58,282 bases of DNA from Cytophagales bacterium (GTDB taxonomy: Bacteria; Bacteroidota; Bacteroidia; Cytophagales; ES-bin-26): NCBI GenBank assembly GCA_014379925.1, contig JACMKY010000100.1, forward strand, positions 1 through 58,282, given 5' to 3'. Numbering within the stretch: position 1 is the first letter of the stretch; each line of letters opens with the position of its first letter. The notes under the pieces were generated by a model. That model had not been told where the DNA came from and ran no database searches. It saw only the letters and a program-made list of their open reading frames with translations. Below are positions 27,237 to 55,006 of the stretch, piece after piece. The position numbers and the translations under genes are program-made.

Positions 27237-28160
27237 CTACACGTTCATCAGCGATTCCCGTCGGCGCATTTTTCCCGCCGGAATCCCGAACATCATCTTG
27301 AAACGGCGGCAGAAGTAGGCGGTGTCCTTGTAGCCTACCTCGGCCCCGATTTCCCGGATGCTTTTCTTGGTCGTGCGCAACAGATTGACCGCCGCTTCCA
27401 TGCGTTGGTATTCGATGTAGTCCTGCGGATTGATGCCCGTGAGCATCTTGAAATACTGCCCTACGTAGTCTTCCGATACGTTGGCCACGCCCGCCAGCAC
27501 CTTGTTGGACAAGTCCCCCCCCAACTGGTCCTTGATGTAGGCGAAGATATCGATCAGCCGCGGGTCCTTGAAATACGTGCTGTTGGTAGCCAGTTGTTCG
27601 ACGAAGAGGCGGTTGGCCAGGATGTAGCGGATCACCTCCACGACAATTTCTTCGGTTTTGATTTTGATGATCCGGCCCCGGCCCGGCAACTCCTGCAGTT
27701 CTTCGGAAATCACTTCGTGAATGACGCGGGCCAGGTGCGGGGAGTCGCGGATCACGAACGGCGGGATGTCGAGGGAAGCGAAGAAATTCACCGAATCAAA
27801 CACTTTGGCCTCGAAGGTGATGTAACCGAACGAATCCGGCAGGGTGCCCACCTTTCCCAAATCCTTGTTGACCCCGAAATATTTTTCTTTGTTGCCCATG
27901 AATTCCTCGTTGGTCAGCCCAACCGGCTGTTGGTGACCGTAGCTGATGGAAAGCATCTTGCCGCCGGGAATGAACAGGATTTCTCCCTCTTCCACCTTTT
28001 CCCTTTCTTTTCCAAAGTCGATACTGCCCTTGTACGACAGGACGATGGTGTTTTCCACGTCGTAAGAATTCCGGATGTTGACGTGCTGTAACACCTTGAT
28101 GTTCTTAGCTTTAATGAATCTAACTCCCAGCGATTCGATTATTTTATTGTAATCTTCCAT
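27237..28160 (-). CDS. AraC family transcriptional regulator
   Basis: The Met at 28160 (MEDYNKIIESLG) avoids an implausible hydrophobic extension. The C-terminal double HTH reads LSNKVLAGVANVSEDYVGQYFKMLTGINPQDYIEYQRMEAAVNLLRTTKKSIREIGAEVGYKDTAYFCRRFK. Confidence 0.88.
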   Translation of the reverse strand: MEDYNKIIESLGVRFIKAKNIKVLQHVNIRNSYDVENTIVLSYKGSIDFGKEREKVEEGEILFIPGGKMLSISYGHQQPVGLTNEEFMGNKEKYFGVNKDLGKVGTLPDSFGYITFEAKVFDSVNFFASLDIPPFVIRDSPHLARVIHEVISEELQELPGRGRIIKIKTEEIVVEVIRYILANRLFVEQLATNSTYFKDPRLIDIFAYIKDQLGGDLSNKVLAGVANVSEDYVGQYFKMLTGINPQDYIEYQRMEAAVNLLRTTKKSIREIGAEVGYKDTAYFCRRFKMMFGIPAGKMRRRESLMNV

Positions 28161-28240
28161 GAACAGGCACGAAGTTAAGAAGTCAGGGATTTCACTTATT
28201 TGGACAAATCTAATAGAAACGTGTAATATATAAAAGCGCA

Positions 28241-28278
28241 TAAAAAAAGTGTGCACTTTTATTTAGCGCGCACACTTT
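28241..28278 (-). terminator. Rho-independent terminator of the acyl-CoA dehydrogenase gene
   Basis: 9-bp stem AAAGTGTGC / GCACACTTT (28246-28254 / 28270-28278) with a 15-nt loop. On the minus strand it is followed by a T-run. It lies about 30 nt past the stop at 28309. Confidence 0.7.
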
Positions 28279-28308
28279 AAACTTTTTGAAGGCGGACCTT
28301 TTAATGCA

Positions 28309-29448
28309 TCACTTGAGTATCTCCCGGGATATCACTATTTTCTGAATCTCGGACGTTCCCTCGTAGATCTGGGTGATTTTGGCGTCGCGCATCAGTCGCT
28401 CCACGTGGTATTCCTTCACGAAGCCGTACCCGCCGTGGATCTGCACGGCTTCCACGGTGGTTTCCATGGCCACGCGGGAAGCAAACAACTTGGCCATGGC
28501 CCCCGCCTTGGTGTAGTCCCCGTGGGTGTCTTTCAGGTAAGCGGCCTGCAGGCACAGCAGCCGCGCCGCGTCGATGTGGGTGGCCATGTCGGCCAACTTG
28601 AATTGGATGGCCTGGTGCTGGGCGATTTCCTTGCCGAAGGCCTTGCGTTCCTTGGCGTACTGCAGCGACAGTTCGTACGCCCCCGAGGCAATGCCCAGGG
28701 CTTGGGCGGCAATGCCGATCCGTCCCCCGTTGAGGGTGGCCATGGCAAACTTGAAGCCGAAACCGTCGTCGCCGATGCGGTTTTCCTTCGGCACCTTCAC
28801 GTCGGTAAACATCAGTGAATGGGTGTCGGAGCCACGAATGCCCAGTTTGTTTTCCTTCCGGCCCACCACGAACCCGGGGGCACCTTTTTCGACGAGGAGG
28901 GCGTTGATTCCCCGGTGGCCCTTCTCGGGATACGTTTGGGCCATCACCAGGTAAACCGACGCGGTGCTCCCGTTCGTAATCCAGTTTTTGGTGCCGTTCA
29001 GCAGGTAGTAATCGCCCAGGTCCGTGGCCGTCGTCTTCTGCGAGGTGGCATCGGAACCGGCTTCGGGTTCCGACAGGCAGAAGGCGCCGATGATTTCGCC
29101 GGTAGCCAGGCGCGTCAGGTACTTCCGTTTTTGCGCTTCGGTTCCGTAGGTTTCCAGGCCCCAGCAGACGAGCGAATTGTTGACCGACATGACCACCGAG
29201 GCGGACGCATCCACCTTGGAGATTTCTTCCATGGCCAGCACGTAGGCGATCGTGTCCAGACCGCCACCCCCGTACTTGGGGTCTACCATCATGCCCATGA
29301 AACCGAGCTCACCCATCTTGCGCACCTGTTCGGCGGGAAAGGTCTGGTGTTCGTCCCGCTCAATCACTCCCGGCAGGAGTTCGGTCCGGGCAAAATCGCG
29401 GGCAGCGGCCTGCACGGCAAGGTGTTCCTCGGAGAGTTGAAAACTCAT
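28309..29448 (-). CDS. Acyl-CoA dehydrogenase (short/butyryl-chain type)
   Basis: The Met at 29448 gives a 379-aa protein starting MSFQLSEEHLAVQAAARDFA. It contains GAFCLSEPEAGSD and GGYGFVKEYHVERLMRDAKITQIYEGTSEIQ, which carries the catalytic Glu region. Confidence 0.93.
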   Translation of the reverse strand: MSFQLSEEHLAVQAAARDFARTELLPGVIERDEHQTFPAEQVRKMGELGFMGMMVDPKYGGGGLDTIAYVLAMEEISKVDASASVVMSVNNSLVCWGLETYGTEAQKRKYLTRLATGEIIGAFCLSEPEAGSDATSQKTTATDLGDYYLLNGTKNWITNGSTASVYLVMAQTYPEKGHRGINALLVEKGAPGFVVGRKENKLGIRGSDTHSLMFTDVKVPKENRIGDDGFGFKFAMATLNGGRIGIAAQALGIASGAYELSLQYAKERKAFGKEIAQHQAIQFKLADMATHIDAARLLCLQAAYLKDTHGDYTKAGAMAKLFASRVAMETTVEAVQIHGGYGFVKEYHVERLMRDAKITQIYEGTSEIQKIVISREILK

Positions 29449-29629
29449 CCCGGGAGAAGTGAGGGTGGATACGGCCATGGACGAAATAAGGGGGAAAAGG
29501 GGTGAAACCGCGCAGCAACTGGTCTTCAAATTTATCCCTAAAATCCCGAAGTTACAACTGCCCGCGCGGCCGCGCCAACCCAACCGGGAAGCGCGAGCTC
29601 GTGGCGGATGGGCAACCGATGCCGTTCCG

Positions 29630-30754
29630 TTAGCTTTGTTCCGCGAAATACATATCCACCTCGCCCTTGTTCTTGGCGGAGATCCGACCCCGGTGGGTAC
29701 ACGTGAATTGATCCTTCACCAACGCGTAGGTAGCCCCCGAGATGTTCACCTTGCCGGTTTGTCCGCTCGATTCCATCCGGCTGGCGATGTTGACCGCATC
29801 GCCCCAAATGTCGTAGGCGAACTTTTTTTTCCCCACCACGCCCGCCACCACGGGTCCGGTATGGATGCCCACGCGCAATTCCCAGGCTGGCTCGCCCCGG
29901 GCGATTTTCTCGGCGTTGATTCCTTCCATGAAGGCCTGGATGGCCAGGCCCGCCCGCACGGCATCGCGGGCGTGCGAAGAATTCGCCACCGGAATTCCTC
30001 CCGCGCACATGTAGGAATCGCCGATGGTCTTGATTTTTTCCAGGTTGTGCCGTTCCGTGATGTCGTCGAAGGCCACGAAGCAACGGTTCAGTTCTTCCAC
30101 CAGCGTCTGCGGTGGGAGCTGTTCGGCGATCCGGGTGAAGTCCCGGAAGTCGGTGAAGAGCACCGATGCCGACGCGTAGTGCTTGGGCGTGGCGAACCCC
30201 TGGTCCTGCAACTCCCGGGCGGTTTCGGCGGGCAGGATGTTGAGCAGGAGGGCTTCGATCTGCTCCTTCTGGCGATTTACCTCGGCCGTGCGTTCCACCA
30301 CCTTGTGTTCCAGGGTTTCGTTGGCCTGTTGCAACTCCCCGATCAACTGGCGGTTCCGGCGGCGCAGCGACAAGGCCTCCATGGCGTTGTCGATGGTAAT
30401 CTTCAGCTCATCCTTGTCCCAGGGCTTGGTGATGTAGCGGTATACCTTGCCGGTGTTGATGGCTTCGATGATGGCTTCCACGTCGCTGAAGCCAGTCAGG
30501 ATCATGCGGATGTTTTCGGGTTCCTCGGGCAGTTGTTGCAGGAACTGGATGCCCGTCATGTTGGGCATGCGCTGGTCGGTGATGACGAGGGAAATGGTTT
30601 CCCGTTCGATGATGTCCAGGCCTTCTTTCCCGGAAACGGCCGTAAAAATGGAGTAAAACCGCCGGAAAGCCGACTTGAAGACCAACAGGTTGTCGGCCTC
30701 GTCGTCTACGTAAAGAATCTTGTGTTTTTCGCTGACAGCTTCCATAACGAACAA
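29630..30754 (-). CDS. Response-regulator receiver fused to a class III adenylate cyclase
   Basis: The REC domain has KILYVDDEADNL and LVITDQRMPNMTG, followed by a coiled-coil linker. Cyclase motifs are SVLFTDFRDFT, EKIKTIGDSYM and YDIWGDAVNIASRME. The Lys/Asp specificity pair points to ATP as substrate. Confidence 0.9.
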   Translation of the reverse strand: MFVMEAVSEKHKILYVDDEADNLLVFKSAFRRFYSIFTAVSGKEGLDIIERETISLVITDQRMPNMTGIQFLQQLPEEPENIRMILTGFSDVEAIIEAINTGKVYRYITKPWDKDELKITIDNAMEALSLRRRNRQLIGELQQANETLEHKVVERTAEVNRQKEQIEALLLNILPAETARELQDQGFATPKHYASASVLFTDFRDFTRIAEQLPPQTLVEELNRCFVAFDDITERHNLEKIKTIGDSYMCAGGIPVANSSHARDAVRAGLAIQAFMEGINAEKIARGEPAWELRVGIHTGPVVAGVVGKKKFAYDIWGDAVNIASRMESSGQTGKVNISGATYALVKDQFTCTHRGRISAKNKGEVDMYFAEQS

Positions 30755-30910
30755 TTGCCAATTAACGGTGAACAGTAAACAACGAAACGCGTAGCTACCG
30801 CGCGCGTCGCCGATGAGGTGCGTTTAAAGCACGGATAACCAACGGGTACGCTGCCGATACATATGCCTCACGAAGCATGGTTAAGCAGTAACAAACGACG
30901 TTTAGACTTC

Positions 30911-30978
30911 CCCCCCGTCGACGCAACGCAGCAACGCTACTCATCAACTCCTTTACTCATCAACTCATCCACTCCCTT
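30911..30978. repeat. Copy A of the dispersed intergenic repeat
   Basis: The sequence CCCCCGTCGACGCAACGCAGCAACGCTACTCATCAACTCCTTTACTCATCAACTCATCCACTCCC ends 2 nt from the stop codon of the histidine kinase gene. Confidence 0.75.
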
Positions 30979-30980
30979 TC

Positions 30981-33248
30981 TCAGCCGTTGACGCTCAACG
31001 GTTCGTTGTTGAGGGGAATCTCAATGATAAACTCGGTGCCCTGGCCCGGTTCGCTTTCGACGCGGATGTTGCCCCGGTGCTTCTCGATGATGCCGTACGT
31101 GATGGACAACCCCAGGCCGGTGCCTTCCCCCACGCCCTTGGTGGTGAAGAACGGCTCGAAGATCCGCCGTTTCACTTCCTCCGTCATTCCCTTGCCCGAG
31201 TCGCGGATGGCAACCTCCACCCAGTCCCGGCCCACCTGACGGACGAGCCCGGTTCGGATGCGGATGGTTCCTTTTTCGGGGATCGATTGAATGGCGTTCA
31301 CCAGGATGTTCATGAATACCTGATTGAGCTGACCGGGGTAGCAGTTGACCAGGGGAATCGCGCCGTATTCCTTCACAATCCGAATCCGGTCCTTGAGTTG
31401 GCTGGAAAGAATGGTGAGCGTGGAATCCAGCCCTTCGTTGAGGTCGGCTTTTTTGAGGGCGTCCTCGTCGAGGCGCGTAAAATTGCGCAGGCTCTTGACG
31501 ATTTCCGTGGTGCGCACGGCCCCGTTCTTGATGCTCTGAAACAACTGTTCCGATTCCTCCACGAGTTCCTCCACGTCGGCTTCTTTTTTGAGCCGGGTCA
31601 GCCGCCCGAGTTTTTCCCGGTTGTCTTCCCCGGGTTGAAGGGCAAAGTATTCCTTGGCCAGGCGGATGATGTCCTGGTAGTTGGCCTTGAGCGAATCAAT
31701 GCCGGCCGAGACGAAGTTGATGGGATTGTTGATTTCGTGGGCCACGCCGGCCGTCAGCTGGCCGAGCGAAGCCATCTTCTCCGACTGCACCAGTTGCGTC
31801 TGGGTGGTCTTGAGGTTTTCCAGCGTCACGCTCAGCTCTTCGTTGACCTGGTTGAGGTGCCGGTTGGTGGCTTGCAGTTCGCGGGTACGTTCTTCCACCT
31901 GCACCTTCAATTCCTGTTTCTGCAGTTCGATCAGCTTGTACTTTTCCACCTCCTGCCGCAGGGATTGCTTGGACAAGCGGCCCACCTCCATCAACTGCGC
32001 TTCCAGTTTGTGGTTGGTGCGGGCGGTCTTGCGCGCCAGGTAAATGGCCGTGGCAACGGGAATGCTGAGCAGACCGGCGTACGAGACAATCGCTTCCGTG
32101 GCCTGCGAGGTGGCCAGGACGTCCGTACGTTCGAGGAAGAGGAAGAGCACAAAAATGGCAAATCCCATCACCCCCCGGCCAATGATGCCGGCGTCGTGCC
32201 GGCGCTTCCACAGGGCCTGTCCGATCACCCGCAGTCCTTCCAGGGTACTGGCCAGGATGAAGCCCGACAAAGCGTACTGATCAATGGTTTTGCCAAGCCC
32301 GCGCCAGACCAGCAGGCCACACAACAACCCGCCCGCCAAGGCAATCCACTTGAACTGCCGGGGCAGGGAAGTTTGGAAAACCGAATACAAAAAGGCGTTG
32401 TAGGAAACGAAAATCAGGGACAGAAAGAAGGGTTCCCGGAGGAGGTGGTACCAAATGCCACTCTCGACCTGATGCGCGTTGCTTTGTAGAAACTGAAGCA
32501 GAAAATAGCCGGCCATGCTGCCGGTGAAAATGCTGTACCAGAGATTCTCCCGGCCGCGGGCGTAGAAGACGTACAACAGCAGGTGCAGGAAAGCGAAGGA
32601 AATGAGAATGCCAAACAAGGGCATCTCAAAAACGGCCGATTTCCGCTCCCGGGTCACTTGTTGGTCAACTGCTTTGCTCAGGTCCGCCAACCGGGCGTTG
32701 AATCCCGCGTAGCGAGCCCGCGAACCGTACCGGGCGCGGATGGCTTCCGCTTTTTCGAACGAGTAGCGAACGGCCAGCAGGTGCCTCGTTTGCCCGTTCA
32801 GGGAGAGGGCTACCGGAAAGTTATTGGGGTTGTAGGTCCGTTCCTCTCCCTGGTAAGAAGCCACCACGCCGAAACTGCGCACCAGTTGGCCGTCCAGGTA
32901 GATTTCGGAAGCCCCGTCGTGGGACAATTGCAGGGCCACCGTGCCGTTCCGGAGCGTAGAATCGATTTCCAGCCACAACCGGAACCAGCCAATTCCCGGC
33001 CAGGTGTTCGGGGGCAGTCGGTCGAGGGAAAACCGCGGGGCCAGGTTGGGCCAGCCCTGATCATTCCAGGAAGGTTTCGACCACTCGAAATCATCGCCGG
33101 CCCCGTATTTCCAGGGCAGTCGGCTCAAGTCGACGAAATCCTTCTCGCGCAGGCTGTCGGCCGAGACGTACGCCCGGTTCGACTGCCCCCGCGCCGGAAC
33201 GAGGCCGAGCCCCGTGGCAAGCAAACAAAGGGTAATCCATGCGCTCAT
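30981..33248 (-). CDS. Sensor histidine kinase with 7TMR-DISM extracellular and 7-TM modules
   Basis: The Met at 33248 gives a signal peptide MSAWITLCLLATGLGLVPARG. A periplasmic jelly-roll-like region (WPGIGWFRLWLEID...SEIYLDGQLV) is followed by about 7 TM helices and a coiled coil. The kinase core has H-box GVAHEINNPINF and G-boxes RDSGKGM and GEGTGLGLS. Confidence 0.88.
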   Translation of the reverse strand: MSAWITLCLLATGLGLVPARGQSNRAYVSADSLREKDFVDLSRLPWKYGAGDDFEWSKPSWNDQGWPNLAPRFSLDRLPPNTWPGIGWFRLWLEIDSTLRNGTVALQLSHDGASEIYLDGQLVRSFGVVASYQGEERTYNPNNFPVALSLNGQTRHLLAVRYSFEKAEAIRARYGSRARYAGFNARLADLSKAVDQQVTRERKSAVFEMPLFGILISFAFLHLLLYVFYARGRENLWYSIFTGSMAGYFLLQFLQSNAHQVESGIWYHLLREPFFLSLIFVSYNAFLYSVFQTSLPRQFKWIALAGGLLCGLLVWRGLGKTIDQYALSGFILASTLEGLRVIGQALWKRRHDAGIIGRGVMGFAIFVLFLFLERTDVLATSQATEAIVSYAGLLSIPVATAIYLARKTARTNHKLEAQLMEVGRLSKQSLRQEVEKYKLIELQKQELKVQVEERTRELQATNRHLNQVNEELSVTLENLKTTQTQLVQSEKMASLGQLTAGVAHEINNPINFVSAGIDSLKANYQDIIRLAKEYFALQPGEDNREKLGRLTRLKKEADVEELVEESEQLFQSIKNGAVRTTEIVKSLRNFTRLDEDALKKADLNEGLDSTLTILSSQLKDRIRIVKEYGAIPLVNCYPGQLNQVFMNILVNAIQSIPEKGTIRIRTGLVRQVGRDWVEVAIRDSGKGMTEEVKRRIFEPFFTTKGVGEGTGLGLSITYGIIEKHRGNIRVESEPGQGTEFIIEIPLNNEPLSVNG

Positions 33249-33326
33249 TGGCAGCGTGTACAGTTTAGTCGTTGGCGGTTGGCCAAGTAGTCGGGGCGTC
33301 CTTGCCATCCCCAACGGGGCGTTTCC

Positions 33327-36300
33327 TCAGTTCCGGGTTTCGTCCGTTGCTTGCCGCAGGGCCGCCAGCTGCTTGTTCTGGGCCCGCAACCGCCGGCAGA
33401 GGATTTTCAGGATCTCGCGGGTTACTTCAATGCGGTCGGCCATGATTTCGTAGAAGGTGGGCTGATCCAGGCGCAGCAACAGCGTATCTTTCAACGCCGT
33501 CACGGAAGCAGAGCGCGGTTCGGGATCGAGCAGGGAAAGCTCCCCGAAAAAATCCCGCCCGGAGAGCTCGGCCAACGTGTACCCGCCGTCGTGAACGCGC
33601 ACGGCCCCTTCGTGGATGATGTACATGCAGGTGCCCACCTCGTCCTTCTCGAACACCCGCTCACCGGCCTTCACGGATACTTCCCGGACAATGGCGGCAA
33701 TGTCCACCAGCACCTCCTCGGAAGTTTCGGCAAAAATAGGGATGGTTTTGAGAACCATGACTTTCTCGACGGTCAGGAGGCTGGTATTCATCGGCTGGTG
33801 GCTAAATTGTTTGACGGCGCTTCCGGTTGGAGCACCGTTGCGGGACAGAGAGGAAGTATACTCGGGATGCAGGTGGGTGAGGGTCCACCAGGCCGTTTCG
33901 GCAATGAGCGGCTCCGACCGGGCGGTGGCTTCCTCGAACACCCGCGCTACTTCCTCCCGGAGCGAGGCCAGGGAAAGCGCCCGGATGGTGAACAGGGCCA
34001 CGGCCCGCGTCCAGGACCCGACGGCGGGTTCCTTTCCCAGCACCAGACACCGCAGGTAGTCGGGCAGGTTCCGTTTCGGATGGGGGAAGTGGGCCCCCAA
34101 CTGCCTGGTCAACCGGGACCCGGGCAAGTCGTCGAACAGGGGCAGCAGGGTCTGGTGCAGTTCCTTGGACAGCAGCACGTCGAGCATCTCCAGCGCGTTG
34201 GCCCGCTTTTCGGGCACCCGCAGGCTGTCCCGGGCCCGCAGGATGATGGAGGCATCGTAGACGAAGGAAAGCAGCCCCAGGAGTCGGTTCTTCAATTGCC
34301 CAAGCTCCTCCCGCAAAGCCGCCCCCATCTTTTCCAGGTCCGCCGCCGGATCGGGCGGGTATGCCTCCAGGGCCTGCCCCGCGTTCAGGTACCAGGCCGC
34401 ATCCGTCAATTCGGCCCGAATGACGTTCAGCACCGTTTCCCGCTCGCGGCCGACCGCCTGGTAGCGGGCGGTTGCCAGCGAATGGAGTACCTGGTTGCGG
34501 ACCGCCACCACCGGGTGGTGCAGGTGAGCCTTCAGCAGATCGATCGCGGACGGTCCCCCGATCCGGCCCGCGACGTGGCTCAGGCGGCGCAGCCGCCCGG
34601 CATCGGTGCCGGAAACCGCTCCGGAGCGGGCAAACTCTTTTTCGAACGCCGGCATGACGGCTTCGCCCGCTTCCACCAGCGAACGGCTGGCGGCCTCGAA
34701 CACCGGCGACCAACCCACGGCCCGGATCATGAGCGGGAACAGGCGCGGGTTGCGGATGCTGCCGCAGGCCCGCAGCGCCGCCAGGCGCACCTCCGTAGCC
34801 GGGTCCTGCAGCAGGCCGAGCAGCGGATGGTAGAACTGAGCAATGCCCACTTCGCCGATCACCGCCGCCGCCAACGTCCTTTCTTCGGGAAGGGAGGAGA
34901 CGATCAAGCGGGTCAGGTACCCGCCCGCCACGATCACCCCGCTGATCCCGCCCGATCGGATCAGACCGACCAGGGCTCCTTTCCGGGCCTCACCATCCGG
35001 GTGTTCCAGCCACGGGCTGATTTCATCGATCACCTCCGATTCGCCCAGCGCGCAGTAGGTGCGGATGGCGGTCTTGCGGATGGCCGGCACGGCTTCGTGG
35101 TTCATCCGTTCCCGCACGGCCGTTTGCAGGCCGGTCAGCTTGAGGCACTCCACTTGGCTGAGGGCTTCCTGACGCACTTCCGGGGTAGGGTGCGTCAGCA
35201 GTACCGCCAGGAAACGGTCCGGCGAAAGGTTGGCCTTGGTGAGCAGGCTCATCGCGTAGAGCACTTCGCCCGGGTGATCACTGCGTAGTTTGTTCCGCAC
35301 CAGTTCGAGGGAAGCGGCATCGTTGAGCACCAGGGAACTGCCCCGCAGCAAGCGGTTGGCCAGGGCTTCGCCCAGCGTCCGCAGGTACGCCCGATTGGCC
35401 AACGTCAGCAGCACCAGCCAACCCGCCAGCACGGCAAACAGCAGCCCGTTGACGAAGGCAAGCCCAAAAAAATCCGACCGGGTCAGTCCCAGCAGCACCA
35501 GCCCGGTCAGTCCCACGGCGAAGGCTTCCACGAAGCTGATGGCATCGTGGGCCGTGAGGCGCAACCGCTTCGACAAAGGTTGCAAAAGGGTCAGGAAGGC
35601 GGCGTCGTAGAGGGAATTTTTCAGGGCTTTGCTGATAAACATCATGCCCACCCATACCCACAGCACGGCCGTGGCGGTCGAACTGGCCAGGCCCGCCGCC
35701 ATGCCGACGAGCGTGGCGGCCAGCAGGCCCAGGGGAAGAACCATCAGGGCCAGGTGGATGCCAAACCGGCTCGTCAGGCGGCTGTAGAGCGCCGTCTTCA
35801 CCAGAAAAGAGACCAGTTCCGCCAATCCGAAGAAAATTCCCAAGAAAGCCGCGATGCGCGTCTGTTCCCGGAACTGATCCTGCACCTGGCTCAGGAAGGC
35901 GAAGTCAACGAAGATGGCCGCCACCGTGGCGAAAAGGGTAACCAGACCAAGCAGCCGGATAAAGTCGTTGCGAAGGAGGCCCGGCGGCGCGGCGGATTCC
36001 GCGTCCGTTTCGGCGGCTTCCAGGTGCGATCGTCTTTTTTGGATGATCAGGCCCAGGCAGAGCAGGGAAAGCCCGAATCCCCCCACTGAGATCCACAGCA
36101 GGTTGGGGGCCCCGATGGAAGACACCAACGCCGACGCCAGCAGGTACCCCGTTACGCTGGCCGGCAATTCGCCCGAGCCCACCACCCCGAGCAGCCGCTT
36201 GCTCTGTCGCACGTCGAACAGCAGGGCGGACAAGCGCACGAAATCGGAATTGGTGAGCAAGACCATCACCCGGTGCCAGACCATGAGGGCGAAGGCCAGC

Positions 36301-36632
36301 CAGGAAACCGAAGTGAAGGCCAACGCCAGGCGCAACGCCACCACGGAGAGCAGCAGGGCCAGGGCTTCCACCACCGTAGCCCGCGCAAGGGACAAGTGCT
36401 TTTCTACTTTCAGGTACGTTGCCATCACCAACAGCAGCATCCCGGAAGCGATGATGTAGAGGTAGGGAAAGCGGTCGGTCGGGAGTTCGGTCAGGAAGAT
36501 GGCCCCCGCCGCCGTCAGGAACACGGCCAGGGCCAGCGCCTGGAAAAAGGAATACAGCCAGAGCGTGCGCACGATCCAGCCCTCGCCCGGCCGCAAGTTG
36601 AGTAAACGCTCGATGTGGAGGGAAGCCTTCAT
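33327..36632 (-). CDS. Polytopic transporter-like membrane domain, HEAT repeats and C-terminal cyclic-nucleotide-binding domain
   Basis: 1101 aa. The N-terminal ~430 aa have about 11-12 TM helices. The middle is helical-repeat rich (LLTHPTPEVRQEAL, LLQDPATEVRLAAL, HHPVVAVRNQVL, all HEAT-like). The C-terminus has the cNMP cassette FGELSLLDPEPRSASV. Confidence 0.85.
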   Translation of the reverse strand: MKASLHIERLLNLRPGEGWIVRTLWLYSFFQALALAVFLTAAGAIFLTELPTDRFPYLYIIASGMLLLVMATYLKVEKHLSLARATVVEALALLLSVVALRLALAFTSVSWLAFALMVWHRVMVLLTNSDFVRLSALLFDVRQSKRLLGVVGSGELPASVTGYLLASALVSSIGAPNLLWISVGGFGLSLLCLGLIIQKRRSHLEAAETDAESAAPPGLLRNDFIRLLGLVTLFATVAAIFVDFAFLSQVQDQFREQTRIAAFLGIFFGLAELVSFLVKTALYSRLTSRFGIHLALMVLPLGLLAATLVGMAAGLASSTATAVLWVWVGMMFISKALKNSLYDAAFLTLLQPLSKRLRLTAHDAISFVEAFAVGLTGLVLLGLTRSDFFGLAFVNGLLFAVLAGWLVLLTLANRAYLRTLGEALANRLLRGSSLVLNDAASLELVRNKLRSDHPGEVLYAMSLLTKANLSPDRFLAVLLTHPTPEVRQEALSQVECLKLTGLQTAVRERMNHEAVPAIRKTAIRTYCALGESEVIDEISPWLEHPDGEARKGALVGLIRSGGISGVIVAGGYLTRLIVSSLPEERTLAAAVIGEVGIAQFYHPLLGLLQDPATEVRLAALRACGSIRNPRLFPLMIRAVGWSPVFEAASRSLVEAGEAVMPAFEKEFARSGAVSGTDAGRLRRLSHVAGRIGGPSAIDLLKAHLHHPVVAVRNQVLHSLATARYQAVGRERETVLNVIRAELTDAAWYLNAGQALEAYPPDPAADLEKMGAALREELGQLKNRLLGLLSFVYDASIILRARDSLRVPEKRANALEMLDVLLSKELHQTLLPLFDDLPGSRLTRQLGAHFPHPKRNLPDYLRCLVLGKEPAVGSWTRAVALFTIRALSLASLREEVARVFEEATARSEPLIAETAWWTLTHLHPEYTSSLSRNGAPTGSAVKQFSHQPMNTSLLTVEKVMVLKTIPIFAETSEEVLVDIAAIVREVSVKAGERVFEKDEVGTCMYIIHEGAVRVHDGGYTLAELSGRDFFGELSLLDPEPRSASVTALKDTLLLRLDQPTFYEIMADRIEVTREILKILCRRLRAQNKQLAALRQATDETRN

Positions 36633-36634
36633 GG

Positions 36635-37240
36635 CTACACCGCCAGCAACTGCCGGATTTCAGTCAGGTGTTTCTGCTTGAGCAGCTCCCGTGCCGCCCG
36701 GGCGGTGGGGGTGAAGTACCGGTGCTGCTCCAGGAACCGCAATTGAATCTCGTTCCACTGCCGCTCCGAACGGATCAGGCCGTGTTCCATTAATTCCCGT
36801 TGCAGGCCCTGCGCAATGGCGTGAAAGTCACCGCGCCCCAGGTAATCCAGGTCGGCGTCGCACATTACCCGTTCCAGGTGCGTACGCGGGGATTGCGGGA
36901 TGCGGGTAGCCAGGATGATGCCCCCCACAATGCCTACCTGATCGGCCGAGTAGCCGAACCGGGGCAATGCTTCCCCGGCAATGCGCACGGCAATGGGTTC
37001 GTTGTCCTGGTATTGTTCCAGGAAACCCGCGTCGTGGTAGTAAGCGGCCGTACGGAGCAACGTCAGGTCGTTGCCCGCCACGTTTTCCTTTTTCGCCAGC
37101 TTCTCCACCGACCGGCAAACGTCCAGCGTGTGGTGCCAGCCGTGGTAGTGAAGGTCCGGGGCAAGTTCGTTCCGCAGACGTCCGACGATGTGGTTTTTGG
37201 CTTCGCTGAAATTCATTGCATTACTTTGAACGGGAGACAC
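36635..37240 (-). CDS. HD-domain metal-dependent phosphohydrolase
   Basis: 201 aa. HYHGWHHTLDV and AAYYHDAGF form the H...HD signature. Its stop lies 2 nt before the start of the cNMP-binding protein gene. Confidence 0.85.
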   Translation of the reverse strand: MSPVQSNAMNFSEAKNHIVGRLRNELAPDLHYHGWHHTLDVCRSVEKLAKKENVAGNDLTLLRTAAYYHDAGFLEQYQDNEPIAVRIAGEALPRFGYSADQVGIVGGIILATRIPQSPRTHLERVMCDADLDYLGRGDFHAIAQGLQRELMEHGLIRSERQWNEIQLRFLEQHRYFTPTARAARELLKQKHLTEIRQLLAV

Positions 37241-37413
37241 CTACTCCGCACCAACGCGACCGTCCGGGCAACGGACCAAATGTAGTTTTTTTTGGGGAAC
37301 TGCAAAATGGCTGGCCGGGGATTAGCGCAACCGATTTCCCGAAATGAGCGATTCCGCGGAAAATAGTTTTTTGGCAGTTACGTTTACGGATCGACCTCTG
37401 TTCTCCGCTGCTT

Positions 37414-37956
37414 ATGCATCGTCTCTTTTGGACCGCCGGCTGGTTGTTCTTGCCTTCCTGCTCACTGGCTCAATTCGCCCGGTCCGTCCCCCCGCCGTCG
37501 GCCGTCCCCGCCCGCCTGGCCCCCCCGGTGGAACTCTACACGCGCGGCTACGGTGCCATCGTGGGCGTGCAACAGGGCCGGTATACGTTTCTCGAACTGG
37601 GCGGGGAAGCCAACTGGCGGACGGTCACGCTGTCCCACCCGCGTACGTACGGCGTGGGTGGCAACCTGGAGTACAACTTCGGACGGGGCGTGTTGGGTTG
37701 GAAGGCCTTCGGCTGGGTCCGGCCCGGGCGGATCGACTTCTCCTACGGCGCAAACCTGGTTTATTACACGGACTTCGATCGGGTTCGTTTCGGGATCGGG
37801 CCGTCGCTGGGCTACAAACTGCTCGGCTTTCACTTGCTGGCCGGGGCCAACCTGCTGGCCGGCAACCGCGCCATGACTTCCTACAATCCCTTTTACTTCA
37901 CCATCCGCTACTACGCCCCAATCCAGAAAAAAACGGGCTTCCGGAGGAGTAAATGA
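37414..37956 (+). CDS. Hypothetical secreted protein, possibly a small beta-barrel
   Basis: 180 aa with signal peptide MHRLFWTAGWLFLPSCSLAQ. Alternating aromatic/Gly strands are present (LEYNFGRGVLGWKAFGW, FSYGANLVYYTDF). I recognise no family. Confidence 0.55.
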   Translation: MHRLFWTAGWLFLPSCSLAQFARSVPPPSAVPARLAPPVELYTRGYGAIVGVQQGRYTFLELGGEANWRTVTLSHPRTYGVGGNLEYNFGRGVLGWKAFGWVRPGRIDFSYGANLVYYTDFDRVRFGIGPSLGYKLLGFHLLAGANLLAGNRAMTSYNPFYFTIRYYAPIQKKTGFRRSK

Positions 37957-38062
37957 GTTGATGAGTTGATGAGTTGATGAGGCTTCTTTTCAATCCATTG
38001 CCCAAATTCATCCGTCGATGCATTGCAGCGACGCTACTCCTTCATCCATCAACTCATCAACT
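37953..38062. repeat. Copy B of the dispersed repeat: (ATGAGTTG)x3, inner hairpin, then inverted CATCAACTCATCAACT
   Basis: ATGAGTTG repeats three times at 37953-37976. The inner palindromic hairpin CGTCG-ATGCATTGCAG-CGACG lies at 38013-38033, followed by ACGCTACTCC. CATCAACTCATCAACT at 38047-38062 is the inverted complement of the left array. The element fills the whole spacer between two convergent stop codons. Confidence 0.85.
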
Positions 38063-38064
38063 TC

Positions 38065-39735
38065 CTACCTCACTTTCGCATCGAAGGCGCCGGTCAGGAT
38101 TTTGCCTTCGCGTTTGATCTGCACCCAGATGCGGTAGTCGCCCGGCTCGGGGAAGGCGTAGGGGAAAGCCACGGTGGATGCTTCGTGCCCGGCGTGCAAC
38201 GGGTCAGCCGACGCGGGGGCGTGGTTCATTGCCGGCATCAGCAGGGCGTTCCGGTCGGTTTCGTTCATGGCGGCCAGCCTGGATAGCACCTGGTCTACGC
38301 TGTCGCGGAAGACCTGGGTGTCGGGTGCCGCAGGAGCGGCTCCTTCGGCGGCGATCCGGGATTCCATGAACTGCTGCTGGGCCATCGAGTACGTACCCAC
38401 CGGGTGCAAGTGAATGAAAACCCGTCCGTCGTCGCGCAGCACCGCCGCGTGACCCATCATGCCCAGGTAGGGTTCCAGCGCCGCGGGTTGTCCCGCCGCC
38501 GTTTGCACCCGGAAGGTCAGCGGATACACTTTGCCGGCTTGCAGGGCCCCGCCCGGGGATTGCTCCCAGGTGATGAGCGAACCGTCGGACAAACGCGTTC
38601 GGATGCCCGGGCTGCCGCACAACACGGCGTTGCTGTCGGCCAGCAGCGGCTGCCCCGATGCCAGCGGATTGGTCACCACGTAGGTGTCTTCGGTATCCCG
38701 GCGCAATCCGGCCGGGTTGAATGACGCGAGCGCAACGGAGACGTTGGGTACCGAGATGTCCACCGTATCGGTGATGGTAACCGGAAAGCCGTTGCGGAAA
38801 ACCACGTCGGCGTACACCAGGTAGCGTCCCGCCGGTACGTTCGGCAGCGCGACCTGAAAAGTGACCGTATCTTTCCGCACCGGGTGGAGGTGAGCGAACA
38901 CGTCCAGGGTACCCTGCCGCACCAGAAACAGGTGCATCAGTTTCCCGTGGTCGGCAACCAGGTAGCTCAACCGCTGATCGCCCACCGAAGCGGTGTCCAT
39001 CCGCAGGGTCAGCACCCGCTGGGCGTCGGGCGCGTCCACGCGGGCGGTGGCGGTGATGGGCCGGTACATGAACCGACGGTAGTCGTCTGCCCAACCGTTC
39101 CACCACGCGCTTCCCCCGTAGAGAATCAATCCGCAAAGCAGGGTGGTGACGCCCATCGCCACCAGCCGCTTGCGCCGGAGGGCGGGGGTGAGGGCTTCGC
39201 CGGGTTTCAGGGTGCCGTCGCTGACGCTGGCACCCACGGTGGTGACCATCAAGGCCAGCAACAATGCCCCCAGTCCGGCCAGTATCCAACCCAACTGCGC
39301 GGGCATTTCCCGCTGGGCCGTGACGGCGGCCAGCACGGGAATCGACGCCGTTCCCCGGCCCGCCGCGCCTTCCACCGCGATGCGCACGCTGGAGGAGCCG
39401 CGCCACATCAGCCAGACCAGGCCCTGGTAGTGTCCCGGCTGCCCGGCCACCGCCTGAATTTCGTCGGGCGAAGGCGCTCCCTCGTCCCCGGCCACCCAGT
39501 GGATGGGCTGCACCGTCACCCGCCGGACGCCCGCCCCCTCCACAAAAACCGACAGTTGGGCCGTACCCGGAATCACGTCGGGGGGTTGTACGTTCACCAG
39601 AATCCGGTACGGTCCGGCCACGCCCTGGTAGACCACGCCCGGGCTGCCGACGTGGGCGTTGGCGAGGGAAAACGTGAAGAGCAGGCAGCAGGCGAGAAAA
39701 CCCCGTATCTGCCGTTCGTTGGTAGGTTGGGTCAT
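38065..39735 (-). CDS. Secreted/membrane protein with N-terminal His after the signal peptide, two central TM helices and two HLHP-containing Ig-like domains (putative metal binding)
   Basis: The Met at 39735 (MTQPTNERQIRGFLACCLLFTFSLANA/HVGSPG) avoids overlap with the upstream gene. Repeats are GKLMHLFLVRQGTLDVFAHLHPV and GMMGHAAVLRDDGRVFIHLHPVG. The C-terminal FPEPGDYRIWVQIKREGKILTGAF resembles YtkA/cupredoxin-like metal-binding domains (recalled). Confidence 0.7.
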   Translation of the reverse strand: MTQPTNERQIRGFLACCLLFTFSLANAHVGSPGVVYQGVAGPYRILVNVQPPDVIPGTAQLSVFVEGAGVRRVTVQPIHWVAGDEGAPSPDEIQAVAGQPGHYQGLVWLMWRGSSSVRIAVEGAAGRGTASIPVLAAVTAQREMPAQLGWILAGLGALLLALMVTTVGASVSDGTLKPGEALTPALRRKRLVAMGVTTLLCGLILYGGSAWWNGWADDYRRFMYRPITATARVDAPDAQRVLTLRMDTASVGDQRLSYLVADHGKLMHLFLVRQGTLDVFAHLHPVRKDTVTFQVALPNVPAGRYLVYADVVFRNGFPVTITDTVDISVPNVSVALASFNPAGLRRDTEDTYVVTNPLASGQPLLADSNAVLCGSPGIRTRLSDGSLITWEQSPGGALQAGKVYPLTFRVQTAAGQPAALEPYLGMMGHAAVLRDDGRVFIHLHPVGTYSMAQQQFMESRIAAEGAAPAAPDTQVFRDSVDQVLSRLAAMNETDRNALLMPAMNHAPASADPLHAGHEASTVAFPYAFPEPGDYRIWVQIKREGKILTGAFDAKVR

Positions 39736-39737
39736 GG

Positions 39738-48233: not shown

Positions 48234-48667
48234 GCCGGTGGCGGCGGTTGACTGACGATGTATTGCTCGGCGGCGGCCAGCGACGCCAACAAAACCGTTG
48301 GAACCCGGGAGTCGGGATGTTGCTGAAGGGCCTCCGAGGACAGCTTGGAAAACAGATCGGGCGACAGTACGCTGATGTTGAAGCGCAGCCCCGCGTCATA
48401 GGCCTGGTTGAAAAATTCGTTGACGATCCAATCGACGGTGCCGGTCCAGGCCGTCTCGAAATCTTTGGTATCGTGCACGTGAAACCGACAGGCGCGTTTT
48501 TGTCCTTCGGCCCGTTGCCAGTGCAACATGCGCAGGGTGGCCTGCTTCAATTCATCATCGGTACAGAAGCCGCTCCACCGCATAAACAGGTAGTTTTTGT
48601 CGGCATTGTAGGTCAACTCGGCGTATACCTCGTCAGCCGCATTGCGGGCAGTATGAATAAGCATCAT
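48230..48667 (-). CDS. Hypothetical protein (STAS/SpoIIAA-like fold suspected)
   Basis: 145 aa. It is translationally coupled on both sides by 4-nt overlaps. NYLFMRWSGFCTDDELKQA resembles DUF-type STAS-like proteins common in Cytophagia (recalled, weak). Confidence 0.55.
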   Translation of the reverse strand: MMLIHTARNAADEVYAELTYNADKNYLFMRWSGFCTDDELKQATLRMLHWQRAEGQKRACRFHVHDTKDFETAWTGTVDWIVNEFFNQAYDAGLRFNISVLSPDLFSKLSSEALQQHPDSRVPTVLLASLAAAEQYIVSQPPPPA

Positions 48668-54935: not shown

Positions 54936-55006
54936 TTACTCATCCGACGGTGCATTGCATCGACGCTACTCATCCACTCCTAGGCTCATCCACTCAAAAA
55001 AATCTT
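54936..55006. repeat. Copy C of the dispersed intergenic repeat
   Basis: TTACTCATCCGACGGTGCATTGCATCGACGCTACTCATCCACTCCTAGGCTCATCCACTC shares the ...GCA..GCA.CGACGCTACTCATC core and the CTCATCCACTC units with copies A and B. Confidence 0.75.

Follow-up and report, generated by a model that had tools for sequence, protein, structure and literature searches.

A block of four genes on the DNA analysed here (a 58,282-nucleotide contig of a Cytophagales bacterium, hereafter the window) can be read with moderate confidence as a module for cAMP signalling that is conserved in Bacteroidota of the Cytophagales and Chitinophagales type. Judged from sequence comparisons, its conserved core is formed by a cyclase, an HD-superfamily protein and a receptor, and its sensor input is variable. 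The four consecutive minus-strand reading frames encode the HD protein, the receptor (an NTT-like/HEAT/cNMP-binding protein that we call the anchor), a 7TMR-DISM kinase and a REC-class III cyclase. All four lie where the preliminary description had placed them, and their Pfam domains agree with it. The same description proposed a complete write-read-erase circuit. Most of that proposal is supported by comparative genomics, through the linkage of the genes, the ATP-type cyclase, the cNMP-binding cassette and the fusions of HD relatives; the 7TMR-DISM kinase falls outside the conserved core.

Products of the four genes

The REC-class III adenylate cyclase gene (29630-30754, minus strand; Pfam Response_reg 69 bits, Guanylate_cyc 180 bits) could start at TTG 30754 (374 aa) or at ATG 30745 (371 aa). 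The ATG appears more likely, close relatives being 369-370 aa long. The product consists of a receiver (13-121) of the RpfG/NosR-like type, a coiled-coil/cyclase-transducer segment, LLLNILPAETARELQ, and a catalytic domain (191-371). Both catalytic motifs reported earlier were found: EKIKTIGDSYM contains Lys242 and the metal-binding Asp246, and YDIWGDAVN contains Asp315 and Asn322 (numbered on the 374-aa product). The aspartate that sets specificity is the one in YDIW, not that in WGD. By this Lys/Asp pair the cyclase is classed as ATP-type, with every catalytic residue in place. The receiver residues D17, D18, D60, T87 and K110 are invariant in 114 of 114 homologs, as are D202, K242, D246, D315, N322 and R326 of the catalytic domain except for R326 (R in 79, Q in 34), and all six catalytic residues occur in 13 of 13 neighbour cyclases. 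In the PDB the protein best matches mammalian tmACs and Rv1625c-type cyclases; the closest named homologs come from Adhaeribacter, Pontibacter and Rufibacter.

The anchor (33327-36632, minus strand) is built of three parts. Residues 1-430 (35343-36632) form a 12-helix NTT/MFS-like membrane domain (AF2 pLDDT 84), for which Foldseek returned the ATP/ADP translocators NTT1 of C. pneumoniae (9j3n, TMt 0.65) and AtNTT1 (9j3m, TMt 0.68). Residues 431-960 (33753-35342; Pfam HEAT_2, 53 bits, HEAT and HEAT_EZ) are modelled as all-helical repeats, a cytoplasmic HEAT solenoid whose PDB profile matches are alphaRep/HEAT proteins. Residues 961-1101 (33327-33752; Pfam cNMP_binding, 72 bits) make up a cyclic-nucleotide-binding (CNB) domain with a C-terminal helix, and this domain superimposes at about 2 Å on cAMP-bound M. 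tuberculosis CRP and GlxR. The phosphate-binding cassette that had been recognised here, FGELSLLDPEPRSASV (residues 1029-1044; FGELSLLDPEPRSA at 33507-33548), is indeed conserved across the family: F1029, G1030, L1035 and D1036 do not vary among 25 anchor homologs, at least 90% of which keep each of E1031, R1040 and A1042. Transport activity of the anchor is uncertain, since the protein falls short of the Pfam thresholds for TLC and for MFS_1 (26 bits for the latter) and its membrane domain has no sequence-level PDB match. Within the family, 9 of 25 members match TLC and 16 of 25 match MFS_1. The protein labelled "transporter-like" earlier belongs to the NTT-HEAT-cNBD architecture, which had been catalogued before (PMC5381601).

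The sensor histidine kinase (30981-33248, minus strand; Pfam 7TMR-DISM_7TM 46 bits, HisKA 31 bits, HATPase_c 91 bits) begins with a signal-peptide-like stretch, which is followed by about 200 aa of extracytoplasmic domain, the 7TMR-DISM 7TM region, a coiled coil, HisKA with its H-box His504 in AHEINNP, and HATPase. Its reading frame can be extended upstream to TTG 33314; Met23 (33248), however, lies ahead of the signal-peptide-like segment. Residues 1-229 gave no Pfam match at E <= 1, and 7TMR-DISMED2 was not detected there. The transmitter region is 77% identical to that of close relatives.

Between the kinase and cyclase genes lies a spacer (30755-30980, minus strand) containing a short dispersed repeat. 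The "repeat copy A" of the preliminary description is confirmed as a repeat of about 50 nt (30915-30975). When the spacer was compared with the window by blastn, partial copies appeared at 37944-38062 and at 54944-54996. The spacer length of 226 nt holds for the TTG start and becomes 235 nt with the likelier ATG. The gap is only 4-5 nt in two close relatives, and the repeat is absent there. Because of this repeat-bearing spacer, co-transcription of kinase and cyclase in the window is not assured; a pattern scan of 30755-30980 found no Bacteroidota-type -7 motif. Such a motif, TACATTTG, was recognised by pattern scan and sequence reading at 37277-37284 (minus strand), with TTTG about 18 nt upstream and the HD GTG 37 nt downstream; its match to the consensus makes it a possible promoter for the block. 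The host genome is that of a soil-type Bacteroidota.

Gene order in relatives

A survey of the four-gene order, proposed earlier, finds HD-anchor-kinase-REC-cyclase kept in the two closest relatives, whose flanking genes differ and whose anchors are 59-61% identical to that of the window. The same parts recur in other orders and orientations in Pontibacter, Rhodocytophaga, a Catalinimonas-like contig and two further loci (L001 and L116), with differing sensor kinases. In Pontibacter sp. CP196710, a TPR-kinase is followed by REC-cyclase and HD, convergent with an NTT-HEAT gene and a separate cNMP-binding gene; identity to the window is 67% in the kinase transmitter, 72% in REC and 66% in the cyclase. 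Like the 7TMR-DISM kinase of the window, this TPR-kinase precedes a REC-cyclase, and the two cyclases are orthologous. Rhodocytophaga rosea has the REC-cyclase divergent from HD and anchor, and L116 has HK-REC-REC-cyclase-HD convergent with the anchor. In Chitinophagales and Marivirga a TPR-membrane cyclase, with a catalytic domain of the same subfamily (51-67% identical), replaces the REC-cyclase beside HD and anchor. This conserved linkage across rearrangements supports a functional link among the four genes. The 7TMR-DISM kinase itself does not belong to the core: relatives have TPR or Reg_prop kinases or a kinase-less TPR-membrane cyclase in its place.

In an unbiased clustering of anchor neighbours, HD comes out on top, being present at 27 of 80 loci with a median gap of 21 nt. 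Among the 30 loci labelled Bacteroidota by taxon, HD lies within 700 nt of the anchor in 22, a cyclase is found in the locus in 13 and within 2.5 kb in 9. An adjacent HD is missing at 8 of these 30 loci and at 45 of the 50 others; some of the loci that lack it are short contigs. One locus (L170) has HD and anchor and no cyclase within 8 kb; the genome behind it encodes a pair of REC-cyclase paralogs, P0372 and P0374, at a distance from the anchor.

The HD protein and alternative readings of the locus

The small all-helical HD-superfamily hydrolase (36635-37240, minus strand; Pfam HD 23.1 bits, cutoff 22; AF2 pLDDT 98) probably starts at ATG 37216, giving 193 aa as gene-called in the database, and is separated from the anchor gene by 2 nt (36633-36634). 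Its structural matches in Foldseek include 2pjq, 2pq7, YpgQ and, among the top ones, PDE5, PDE4 and PDE2. In a PDB profile search 2pq7 and 2hek come first and class I phosphodiesterases (PDEs) third and lower, aligned over YHxxxHxxDV...HD. The HxxxH motif is not diagnostic of a PDE, because 2pq7 has it too; the class I signature fails, HD being followed by AGF, not xxHxG, and Pfam PDEase_I does not match the protein. The family is large (8,786 matches at E <= 1e-3 in a representative library), and among its 150 best representatives H25, H29, H61, D62, D120 and D122 are invariant. In 89 of these 150 the HD domain is fused to a class III cyclase domain, with the specificity Lys in 84 of the 89 and the Asp in 80. 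Of the 150, four carry a cNMP-binding domain, one an entire anchor (P0274) and one REC plus cyclase; P0194 is an HD-CNB-SpoIIE fusion. In independent metagenome HD loci a cyclase domain lies directly upstream on the same strand in 42 of 80, and in one locus (L120) a cNMP-binding hybrid kinase lies immediately 5' of HD. The assignment of HD as a candidate phosphodiesterase, the weakest step of the earlier proposal, thereby gains strong independent support from fusions with cyclases and cNMP-binding domains. Since HD is the leading neighbour of the anchor, is fused to cyclases and cNMP-binding domains, and has a model resembling both HD hydrolases and PDE5/PDE4, we regard it as a candidate cAMP phosphodiesterase, and its family as a strong candidate for what is likely a new, uncharacterised kind of such enzymes in bacteria.

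One could envision instead that HD processes nucleotides, as a YpgQ-like NTP pyrophosphohydrolase or a nucleotidase acting on the substrate or product of the NTT-like carrier, with cAMP merely regulating the carrier and being removed by an enzyme encoded elsewhere. In both searches YpgQ, an NTP pyrophosphohydrolase, and the uncharacterised small HD hydrolases 2pjq and 2pq7 score level with the PDEs or ahead of them, the anchor is adjoined by HD more often than by a cyclase (22 against 9-13 of 30 Bacteroidota loci), L170 pairs HD with an anchor away from any nearby cyclase, and P0274 joins HD to a whole anchor. However, HD is joined to cyclases in the absence of any NTT domain in the 89 representatives and 42 metagenome loci mentioned above, and to cNMP-binding proteins that are not transporters in P0194 and L120. 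An NTP-degrading domain on an ATP-consuming cyclase has no obvious logic, whereas proteins that combine the synthase and the hydrolase of a single messenger are familiar (GGDEF-EAL, RelA/SpoT, CAPE; PMC5159850). We therefore consider the carrier-linked role of HD unlikely.

Nor is it probable, and we would give it quite a small chance, that the block combines two independent neighbours: a kinase and REC-cyclase generator with targets elsewhere, and an HD/NTT-HEAT-cNBD pair answering cAMP or cGMP from any cyclase of the genome, with no dedicated closed circuit. The unconserved kinase type (7TMR-DISM, TPR, Reg_prop or none), the 226-nt repeat-bearing spacer, genomes of the L170 type with distant REC-cyclase paralogs, the great abundance of this family's REC-cyclases and the diffusibility of cAMP would all fit such an arrangement. 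But cyclase, HD and anchor are repeatedly co-located in at least five gene orders, with two cyclase architectures and across families; L116 unites all of HK-REC-REC-cyclase-HD beside the anchor; and a cyclase within 2.5 kb at 9 of 30 Bacteroidota anchor loci is far above chance for a few dozen cyclase genes per genome (by our own estimate, less than 10% within 10 kb). Very improbable, finally, is an anchor that serves as a membrane-bound, cAMP-responsive scaffold whose NTT-like domain no longer transports and whose HEAT solenoid recruits partners, possibly HD or the cyclase. Its subthreshold TLC and MFS_1 scores and the lack of a sequence-level PDB match for its membrane domain would suit this role, as would the nature of HEAT repeats as protein-interaction modules (PMC5381601) and an NTT-HEAT-cNBD architecture that, in the part of the literature at hand, carries no experimentally assigned function. 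Yet the full 12-helix fold matches solved NTTs over about 480 columns (TMt 0.65-0.68), and the polar or charged residues Y59, R142, Q143, K145 and R146 (the last four in a conserved DVRQSKRL motif) are invariant across phyla, as expected of a working carrier.

A proposed circuit and its known counterparts

In the module as we prefer to read it, the transfer of phosphate, the activation of the cyclase, the identity of the ligand as cAMP, its hydrolysis by HD and transport of any kind are all predictions. The 7TMR-DISM module would sense an extracytoplasmic or membrane cue, and the kinase would autophosphorylate at His504 and pass the phosphate to Asp60 of the REC-cyclase. The phosphorylated receiver would then activate the homodimeric class III domain via the coiled-coil transducer segment, converting ATP to cAMP. 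Binding of cAMP to the C-terminal domain of the NTT-HEAT-cNBD protein might alter, through the HEAT solenoid, the activity of the NTT-type nucleotide carrier. The HD hydrolase, which may be translationally coupled to the carrier gene across the 2-nt gap, would cleave cAMP and so reset the system. The Crp-family gene 11 kb away (48664-49260), previously mentioned in this context, encodes a degenerate phosphate-binding cassette and adds no support.

The known bacterial cAMP phosphodiesterases are the class III metallophosphoesterases CpdA/Rv0805 and the class II enzyme CpdP. HD would share their role in ending cAMP signals, but differs in fold and superfamily (all-helical HD as opposed to calcineurin-like metallophosphoesterase). 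Another parallel is CAPE of Marchantia, a combined adenylyl cyclase and phosphodiesterase of demonstrated activity (PMC5159850, PMC8115329, PMC11032487). There too a class III adenylate cyclase is coupled to an HD-superfamily cAMP-degrading domain, so that one locus writes and erases; the logic recurs in the cyclase-HD fusions and, divided between neighbouring genes, in the window, the HD activity being predicted. The PDE of CAPE, however, has about 330 aa and belongs to the canonical eukaryotic class I domains, whereas the bacterial HD has about 190 aa, lacks HDxxHxG and does not match PDEase_I; the usual domain order also differs, the bacterial fusions having the cyclase first.

Receiver control of a class III cyclase has a precedent in cyanobacterial CyaC (as cited in PMC1183210), in which a receiver lies upstream of the cyclase domain and a histidine kinase is in control. 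CyaC, being a hybrid, carries kinase and receiver domains of its own, unlike the window, where the 7TMR-DISM membrane kinase is separate and the receiver is RpfG/NosR-like. The anchor corresponds to the NTT-HEAT-cNBD fusions (HEAT repeats between an NTT/TLC-like membrane domain and a C-terminal cNBD) catalogued in 2017 by architecture and phylogeny, with no function assigned (Major, Embley and Williams; PMC5381601). Among these it is divergent, scoring too low for the Pfam TLC threshold. The split form described there, in which the cNBD has a gene of its own after the NTT-HEAT gene, is the one found here in Pontibacter, and the speculation of those authors that cAMP tunes the NTT carrier agrees with our reading. 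The passages searched in that paper make no mention of HD or cyclase gene neighbours; the present analysis adds the HD neighbour, which is conserved, a neighbouring cyclase and the fusion of anchor and HD. The combination of a membrane transport domain with a C-terminal CNB domain is also seen in the sperm Na+/H+ exchanger SLC9C1 and in HCN, CNG, SthK and MloK1 channels. These have an NHE domain or a voltage-gated-like pore in place of the NTT/MFS fold and no HEAT solenoid between membrane and CNB domains, and they are among the top Foldseek matches to the CNB part of the anchor, SLC9C1 ranking first by E-value.

Organization and conservation of the gene block

The block consists of four minus-strand open reading frames placed as in the preliminary description, and Pfam and NCBIfam bear out each domain assignment. 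They encode a small HD protein (36635-37240; a marginal Pfam HD match, 23.1 bits against a cutoff of 22), a membrane protein with HEAT repeats, a cNMP-binding domain and a sub-threshold MFS_1 match (33327-36632), a sensor kinase (ORF 30981-33314; 7TMR-DISM_7TM, HisKA and HATPase_c) and a receiver-cyclase, REC-cyclase for short (29630-30754; Response_reg and Guanylate_cyc). The cyclase is likely to start at the ATG at 30745, the kinase at Met23 (33248) and the HD protein (193 aa) at the ATG at 37216. Also real are the 2-nt gap between the HD and membrane protein genes, the 226-nt spacer between the kinase and cyclase genes, and the cyclase and phosphate-binding-cassette motifs quoted in that description. 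The REC-cyclase has named homologs (65-70% identity) in Adhaeribacter, Pontibacter and Rufibacter, which places the source of the window in a Hymenobacteraceae-like lineage of the Cytophagales.

Within the kinase-cyclase spacer lies a dispersed, roughly 50-nt repeat (30915-30975), rich in GAGTTGATGAGT-like units, which has further stretches at 37944-38062 and 54944-54996 and is missing in close relatives. A TAnnTTTG scan detected no Bacteroidota-type promoter-like motif in this spacer; the one plausible site in the scan precedes the HD ORF by 37 nt (TTTG, about 18 nt, TACATTTG) and is a match to the consensus only. No promoter-like sites emerged from a sigma-70 scan of the block, which carries no information here, since Bacteroidota promoters are of another type; terminator-like sites in the block are at chance level, and the window gave no match in Rfam or tRNA scans. 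Directly downstream of the cyclase lie genes for an AraC-family regulator and an acyl-CoA dehydrogenase (27237-29583, minus strand), which mark the boundary of the block because they are not conserved there in relatives. Upstream of the HD gene, both close relatives (loci L082-L085) carry a gene for a 911-aa DUF4114 and Por_Secre_tail (T9SS-secreted) protein; the window has instead an unannotated 180-aa ORF (37414-37956, plus strand) and a 654-aa ORF (38065-40029, minus strand), neither with a Pfam match.

Linkage was surveyed with the membrane protein, hereafter the anchor, as reference. Eighty homolog-encoding genome loci were fetched out of more than 570 across many phyla, and their neighbors were identified both by tblastn with the window proteins and by unbiased all-against-all clustering of neighboring ORFs, with results that agree. 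The commonest neighbor belongs to the HD family (27-28 of the 80 loci, median gap 21 nt) and is found either upstream on the same strand or downstream in convergent orientation. Among 30 Bacteroidota-labeled loci, an HD gene lies within 700 nt in 22, a cyclase is present in the locus in 13 and within 2.5 kb in nine; the corresponding figures for the 50 loci from other phyla are five, four and three.

The exact order of HD protein, anchor, 7TMR-DISM kinase and REC-cyclase recurs in the two closest relatives, where the flanks differ, the anchors are 59-61% identical to that of the window and the kinase and cyclase genes are 4-5 nt apart. Elsewhere the parts are rearranged. In Rhodocytophaga rosea the REC-cyclase gene is divergent from the HD-anchor pair, with TPR and Reg_prop kinases close by; on a Catalinimonas-like contig a kinase gene converges on the anchor gene and the REC-cyclase is 3.7 kb off; at locus L116 an HK-REC-REC-cyclase-HD arrangement converges on the anchor. 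In Pontibacter sp. CP196710, which was found independently by way of the REC-cyclase, the genes for a TPR-kinase, a REC-cyclase and HD are convergent with an NTT-HEAT gene, and a cNMP-binding gene comes separately after it. The neighboring cyclase of Chitinophagales and Marivirga combines a signal peptide and TPR repeats with a single transmembrane helix, and its catalytic domain is 51-67% identical to that of the window. Because these arrangements keep the core parts while the sensor varies, the conserved core comprises the cyclase, the HD protein and the cNMP-binding membrane protein, with an interchangeable sensory input. The write-read-erase cAMP circuit initially proposed for the block is substantially supported by conserved gene linkage, domain fusions and intact functional residues, from which its biochemical steps are all inferred; the specific kinase, on the other hand, turns out to be a lineage-specific input outside the core.

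The third most frequent neighbor of the anchor, encoded at 14 loci, mostly from Chitinophagales, is a very large secreted repeat protein (median about 1,945 aa) lying within about 1 kb (L021, L038, L040, L046, L048, L053, L055, L059-L063, L065 and L068). The CNB-less NTT-HEAT relatives P0044, P0058 and P0062 have no HD neighbor, a sample of three loci that cannot discriminate; nor does the distant NTT-HEAT-cNBD protein P0047 have one.

The cyclase and its sensory input

The catalytic domain of the REC-cyclase (PF00211, residues 191-371) scores 179.8 bits against a cutoff of 21.9, and its best PDB matches are the mammalian membrane cyclases AC8, AC9 and AC5 and Rv1625c-type cyclases. All six class III residues are in place, namely the metal-binding aspartates D202 and D246, K242 and D315, and the transition-state residues N322 and R326, and the same holds for 13 of 13 neighbor cyclases. 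Five of these positions are invariant in 114 homologs; the sixth, 326, is Arg in 79 and Gln in 34. The Lys/Asp pair noted in the preliminary description does align with the Lys and Asp of the adenylate cyclase C2 domain (HMMER alignment), as K242 in EKIKTIGD and D315 in YDIWG. By these residues the protein is a class III adenylate cyclase of the Lys/Asp, ATP-type rather than the Glu/Cys, GTP-type, and is predicted to synthesize cAMP.

The receiver likewise retains its acidic pocket, phospho-acceptor Asp and conserved Thr and Lys (D17, D18, D60, T87 and K110), which are invariant in the 114 homologs. The kinase has HisKA (31 bits) and HATPase_c (91 bits) domains, an H-box His504 within AHEINNP, and a 7TMR-DISM_7TM domain (PF07695, residues 232-427) that scores 46.3 bits against a cutoff of 29. 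A 7TMR-DISMED1/2 extracellular domain was not found, residues 1-229 having no Pfam match at E <= 1. Transmitter and receiver genes adjoin with a 4-5 nt gap in L082-L085 and are adjacent in Pontibacter too. Given the identities between the Pontibacter sp. CP196710 proteins and those of the window (67% for the kinase transmitter, 72% for the receiver and 66% for the cyclase), the transmitter and the receiver-cyclase form an orthologous pair whose genes remain neighbors even as the sensor domain varies. Phosphotransfer from the kinase to the REC-cyclase is predicted.

The REC-cyclase belongs to an orthologous family that is widespread across Hymenobacteraceae and beyond, and the idea of a recent REC-for-TPR domain swap in the window lineage has to be softened in view of this distribution. 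Likewise, the Crp-family regulator gene initially pointed out near the block (48664-49260, minus strand) finds no support as a part of the circuit, and we reject it. Its product barely passes the Pfam cNMP_binding model (29 bits against 27.5) and, because its phosphate-binding cassette is degenerate (FENGLLGSLVSFFTQRPSF; FENG...RPS where the canonical form is FGE...R[ST]A), is probably not a cAMP receptor.

The HD family as candidate eraser

The window HD protein is an HD superfamily phosphohydrolase (PF01966), with the H...HD...D metal-binding residues and the HD fold. Residues H25, H29, H61, D62, D120 and D122 are invariant in all 150 best representatives of the family, and the AF2 model has a pLDDT of 98. 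Among family models the protein matches only the generic HD model, just above cutoff, with HD-CE and HDIG below threshold; a PDB sequence search with the protein alone gave no match. The family it belongs to is large. A word-indexed search returned 870 clusters, several of them N-terminally truncated with a cyclase C-terminus running in frame into the HD domain, and when 1.84 billion representatives were searched exhaustively with a profile, 8,786 matched at E <= 1e-3 and 1,742 still matched at E <= 1e-30.

In the 150 best representatives, the HD domain is joined to a class III cyclase domain in 89 (one also with REC) and stands alone in 47; four are fused to a cNMP-binding domain, two to a histidine kinase, one (P0274, NTT + HEAT + CNB + HD) to a complete anchor, and seven have other or unknown partners. 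The fused cyclases are of the ATP type, with the Lys present in 84 of the 89 and the Asp in 80. Sensors ahead of the cyclase-HD fusions are diverse by Pfam (Reg_prop/Y_Y_Y, TPR, MASE2, PAS, AAA-TPR), examples being P0202 (MASE2-cyclase-HD) and P0195 (TPR-cyclase-HD). The HD-CNB fusions are P0194 (648 aa, HD-cNMP_binding-SpoIIE/PP2C), P0231, P0301 and P0325. In an independent metagenome set of 80 HD loci, a cyclase domain lies just upstream of HD on the same strand in 42, at a distance of 57-133 nt in 39, and the anchor adjoins HD in two. Of the loci with no cyclase, L120 carries the gene of a cNMP-binding hybrid kinase immediately upstream of HD, and L157 that of a 7TMR-DISM kinase resembling the one in the window.

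One could envision that the protein is a member of an established phosphodiesterase class. Foldseek does match the model to a long series of PDE5A, PDE4D and PDE2A structures, at TMq 0.55-0.69 and E-values from 8e-4 (PDE5A) to about 2e-2 (PDE4D), which are no better than those of generic small HD hydrolases; the other matches are YpgQ and the uncharacterized small HD hydrolases 2pjq and 2pq7. A PDB profile search places class I phosphodiesterases third and below, behind 2pq7 and 2hek, aligned over YHxxxHxxDV...HD, with E-values of 0.04 for PDEB1 and 0.1 for PDE9A and a PDEB1/PDE9/PDE5 range of 0.04 to 1. The HxxxH motif in this alignment is not diagnostic, because 2pq7 has it too. Moreover, PDEase_I (PF00233) gives no Pfam match, the domain has about 190 aa against about 330 aa for the class I domain, and the class I signature HD[LIVMFY]xHx[AG] is absent: the protein reads YYHDAGFLE, that is HDAGF rather than HDxxHxG, with no second His. 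As for HD-GYP proteins (HHExxDGxGYP), the sequence contains no GYP and has no HD-GYP family match. Lacking both the HDxxHxG signature and the GYP motif, the HD protein is ruled out as a member of either class.

The phosphodiesterase role initially suggested for the HD protein is supported, as a candidate function, by the fusions to cyclase and cNMP-binding domains. The fusion pattern is most simply read as the HD domain hydrolyzing the cyclase product. GGDEF-EAL and RelA/SpoT proteins join the synthase and the hydrolase for one messenger. The HD family would share this logic with them and with CAPE, a plant fusion of adenylate cyclase and phosphodiesterase (PMC5159850). A search of the literature outside subscription journals found nothing relevant on this HD family as a cAMP phosphodiesterase, on COG4339 or on cyclase-HD bifunctional enzymes.

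L165 (10001-11473) offers an unexpected membrane-anchored variant, in which a YitT-family five-TM membrane domain and DUF2179 are joined to the HD domain. At L153 and L160, stand-alone HD genes with neither cyclase nor anchor neighbor are flanked by genes for tandem universal stress proteins (L153, 9013-9855 and 10658-11542; L160, 9187-9987); the call at L153 9013-9852 is confirmed by Pfam (Usp), the others being apparent by sequence.

The candidate membrane receptor and its possible function

The anchor has the domain order NTT, HEAT, cNBD, an architecture that Major, Embley and Williams listed in 2017 without assigning it a function, speculating that cAMP adjusts ATP uptake (PMC5381601). Later papers cite this catalogue only, and the NTT-HEAT clade is not known to have a characterized member. 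The window protein has no match to Pfam TLC (PF03219), scores 26.3 bits against a cutoff of 33.4 for MFS_1, and its transmembrane domain alone retrieves nothing from the PDB with phmmer. Among 25 aligned homologs, nine match TLC at E <= 0.01 (best 1.2e-9) and 16 match MFS_1; database annotations of homologs include "ATP:ADP antiporter, AAA family". We regard the anchor, from these comparisons, as a divergent NTT-HEAT-cNBD member lying below both thresholds.

Its AF2 model (pLDDT 84) comprises a 12-helix membrane domain, a HEAT solenoid and a cNMP-binding domain. Foldseek aligns it over about 480 columns with the solved translocators 9j3n (C. pneumoniae NTT1, TMt 0.65) and 9j3m (Arabidopsis AtNTT1, TMt 0.68); as modeled, the membrane domain has the NTT fold, and transport activity is putative. 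The polar and charged membrane-domain residues R142, Q143, K145 and R146 are conserved family-wide. The CNB domain (PF00027, 72 bits) superimposes in the model on cAMP-bound CRP and GlxR at about 2 Å rmsd. It does carry the phosphate-binding cassette recognized earlier, FGELSLLDPEPRSA (G-E...R-[ST]-A), conserved across the 25 homologs at F1029, G1030, E1031, R1040 and A1042, with S1041 also within the conserved cassette.

Systems that combine a cyclase with a cNMP receptor and a phosphodiesterase are known. What appears to be new is the likely identity of the eraser, a large HD family whose members are mostly joined to adenylate cyclases, as well as the tight association of this family with the uncharacterized NTT-HEAT-cNBD proteins and the testable hypothesis that results for both. 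Current accounts of bacterial cAMP turnover invoke CpdA-type and class II phosphodiesterases, and for many phyla whose cyclases number in the dozens no cAMP eraser has, to our knowledge, been assigned. It is tempting to speculate, as a reading we hold only tentatively and consider rather unlikely in full, that the HD domain of about 190 aa defines a large bacterial family of 3',5'-cAMP phosphodiesterases with thousands of members, most fused to ATP-type class III cyclases, and that the anchor is a cAMP-gated nucleotide carrier. If the HD domain does hydrolyze cAMP, its family (some 8,800 representative clusters, with over half of the best cyclase-fused) would fill the eraser gap, and cAMP would gain a bacterial counterpart of the make-and-break logic of GGDEF-EAL and RelA/SpoT. 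In the boldest version of the reading, the carrier would move cAMP or adenine nucleotides across the membrane and the module would govern whether the messenger is exported or exchanged.

Chlamydia, cyanobacteria and oomycetes have NTT-HEAT relatives, and the same reading would provide a first function for these widely conserved proteins, the uncharacterized one of Chlamydia included. The linkage ties the NTT-HEAT-cNBD proteins, which are found in many phyla, to a defined signaling context with a dedicated cyclase and hydrolase. The block of the window is a compact, nearly complete natural system whose pieces can be expressed and assayed one by one, and the function of anchor-type proteins is directly testable in culturable strains of Pontibacter, Rhodocytophaga or Adhaeribacter.

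Other cNMP-binding proteins occur near such genes. About 8 kb from the kinase/REC-cyclase/HD/NTT-HEAT/CNB cluster of Pontibacter sp. CP196710 lies a gene for a cNMP_binding-NTE_Ploop-patatin protein (L172, 1368-3233), possibly a second cAMP effector in that neighborhood. In a Chloroflexota MAG (L026, 10115-14916), CNB, NTT-HEAT-CNB, HD and CNB genes follow one another on one strand, the extra CNB domains flanking the anchor and HD suggesting an expanded receptor set.
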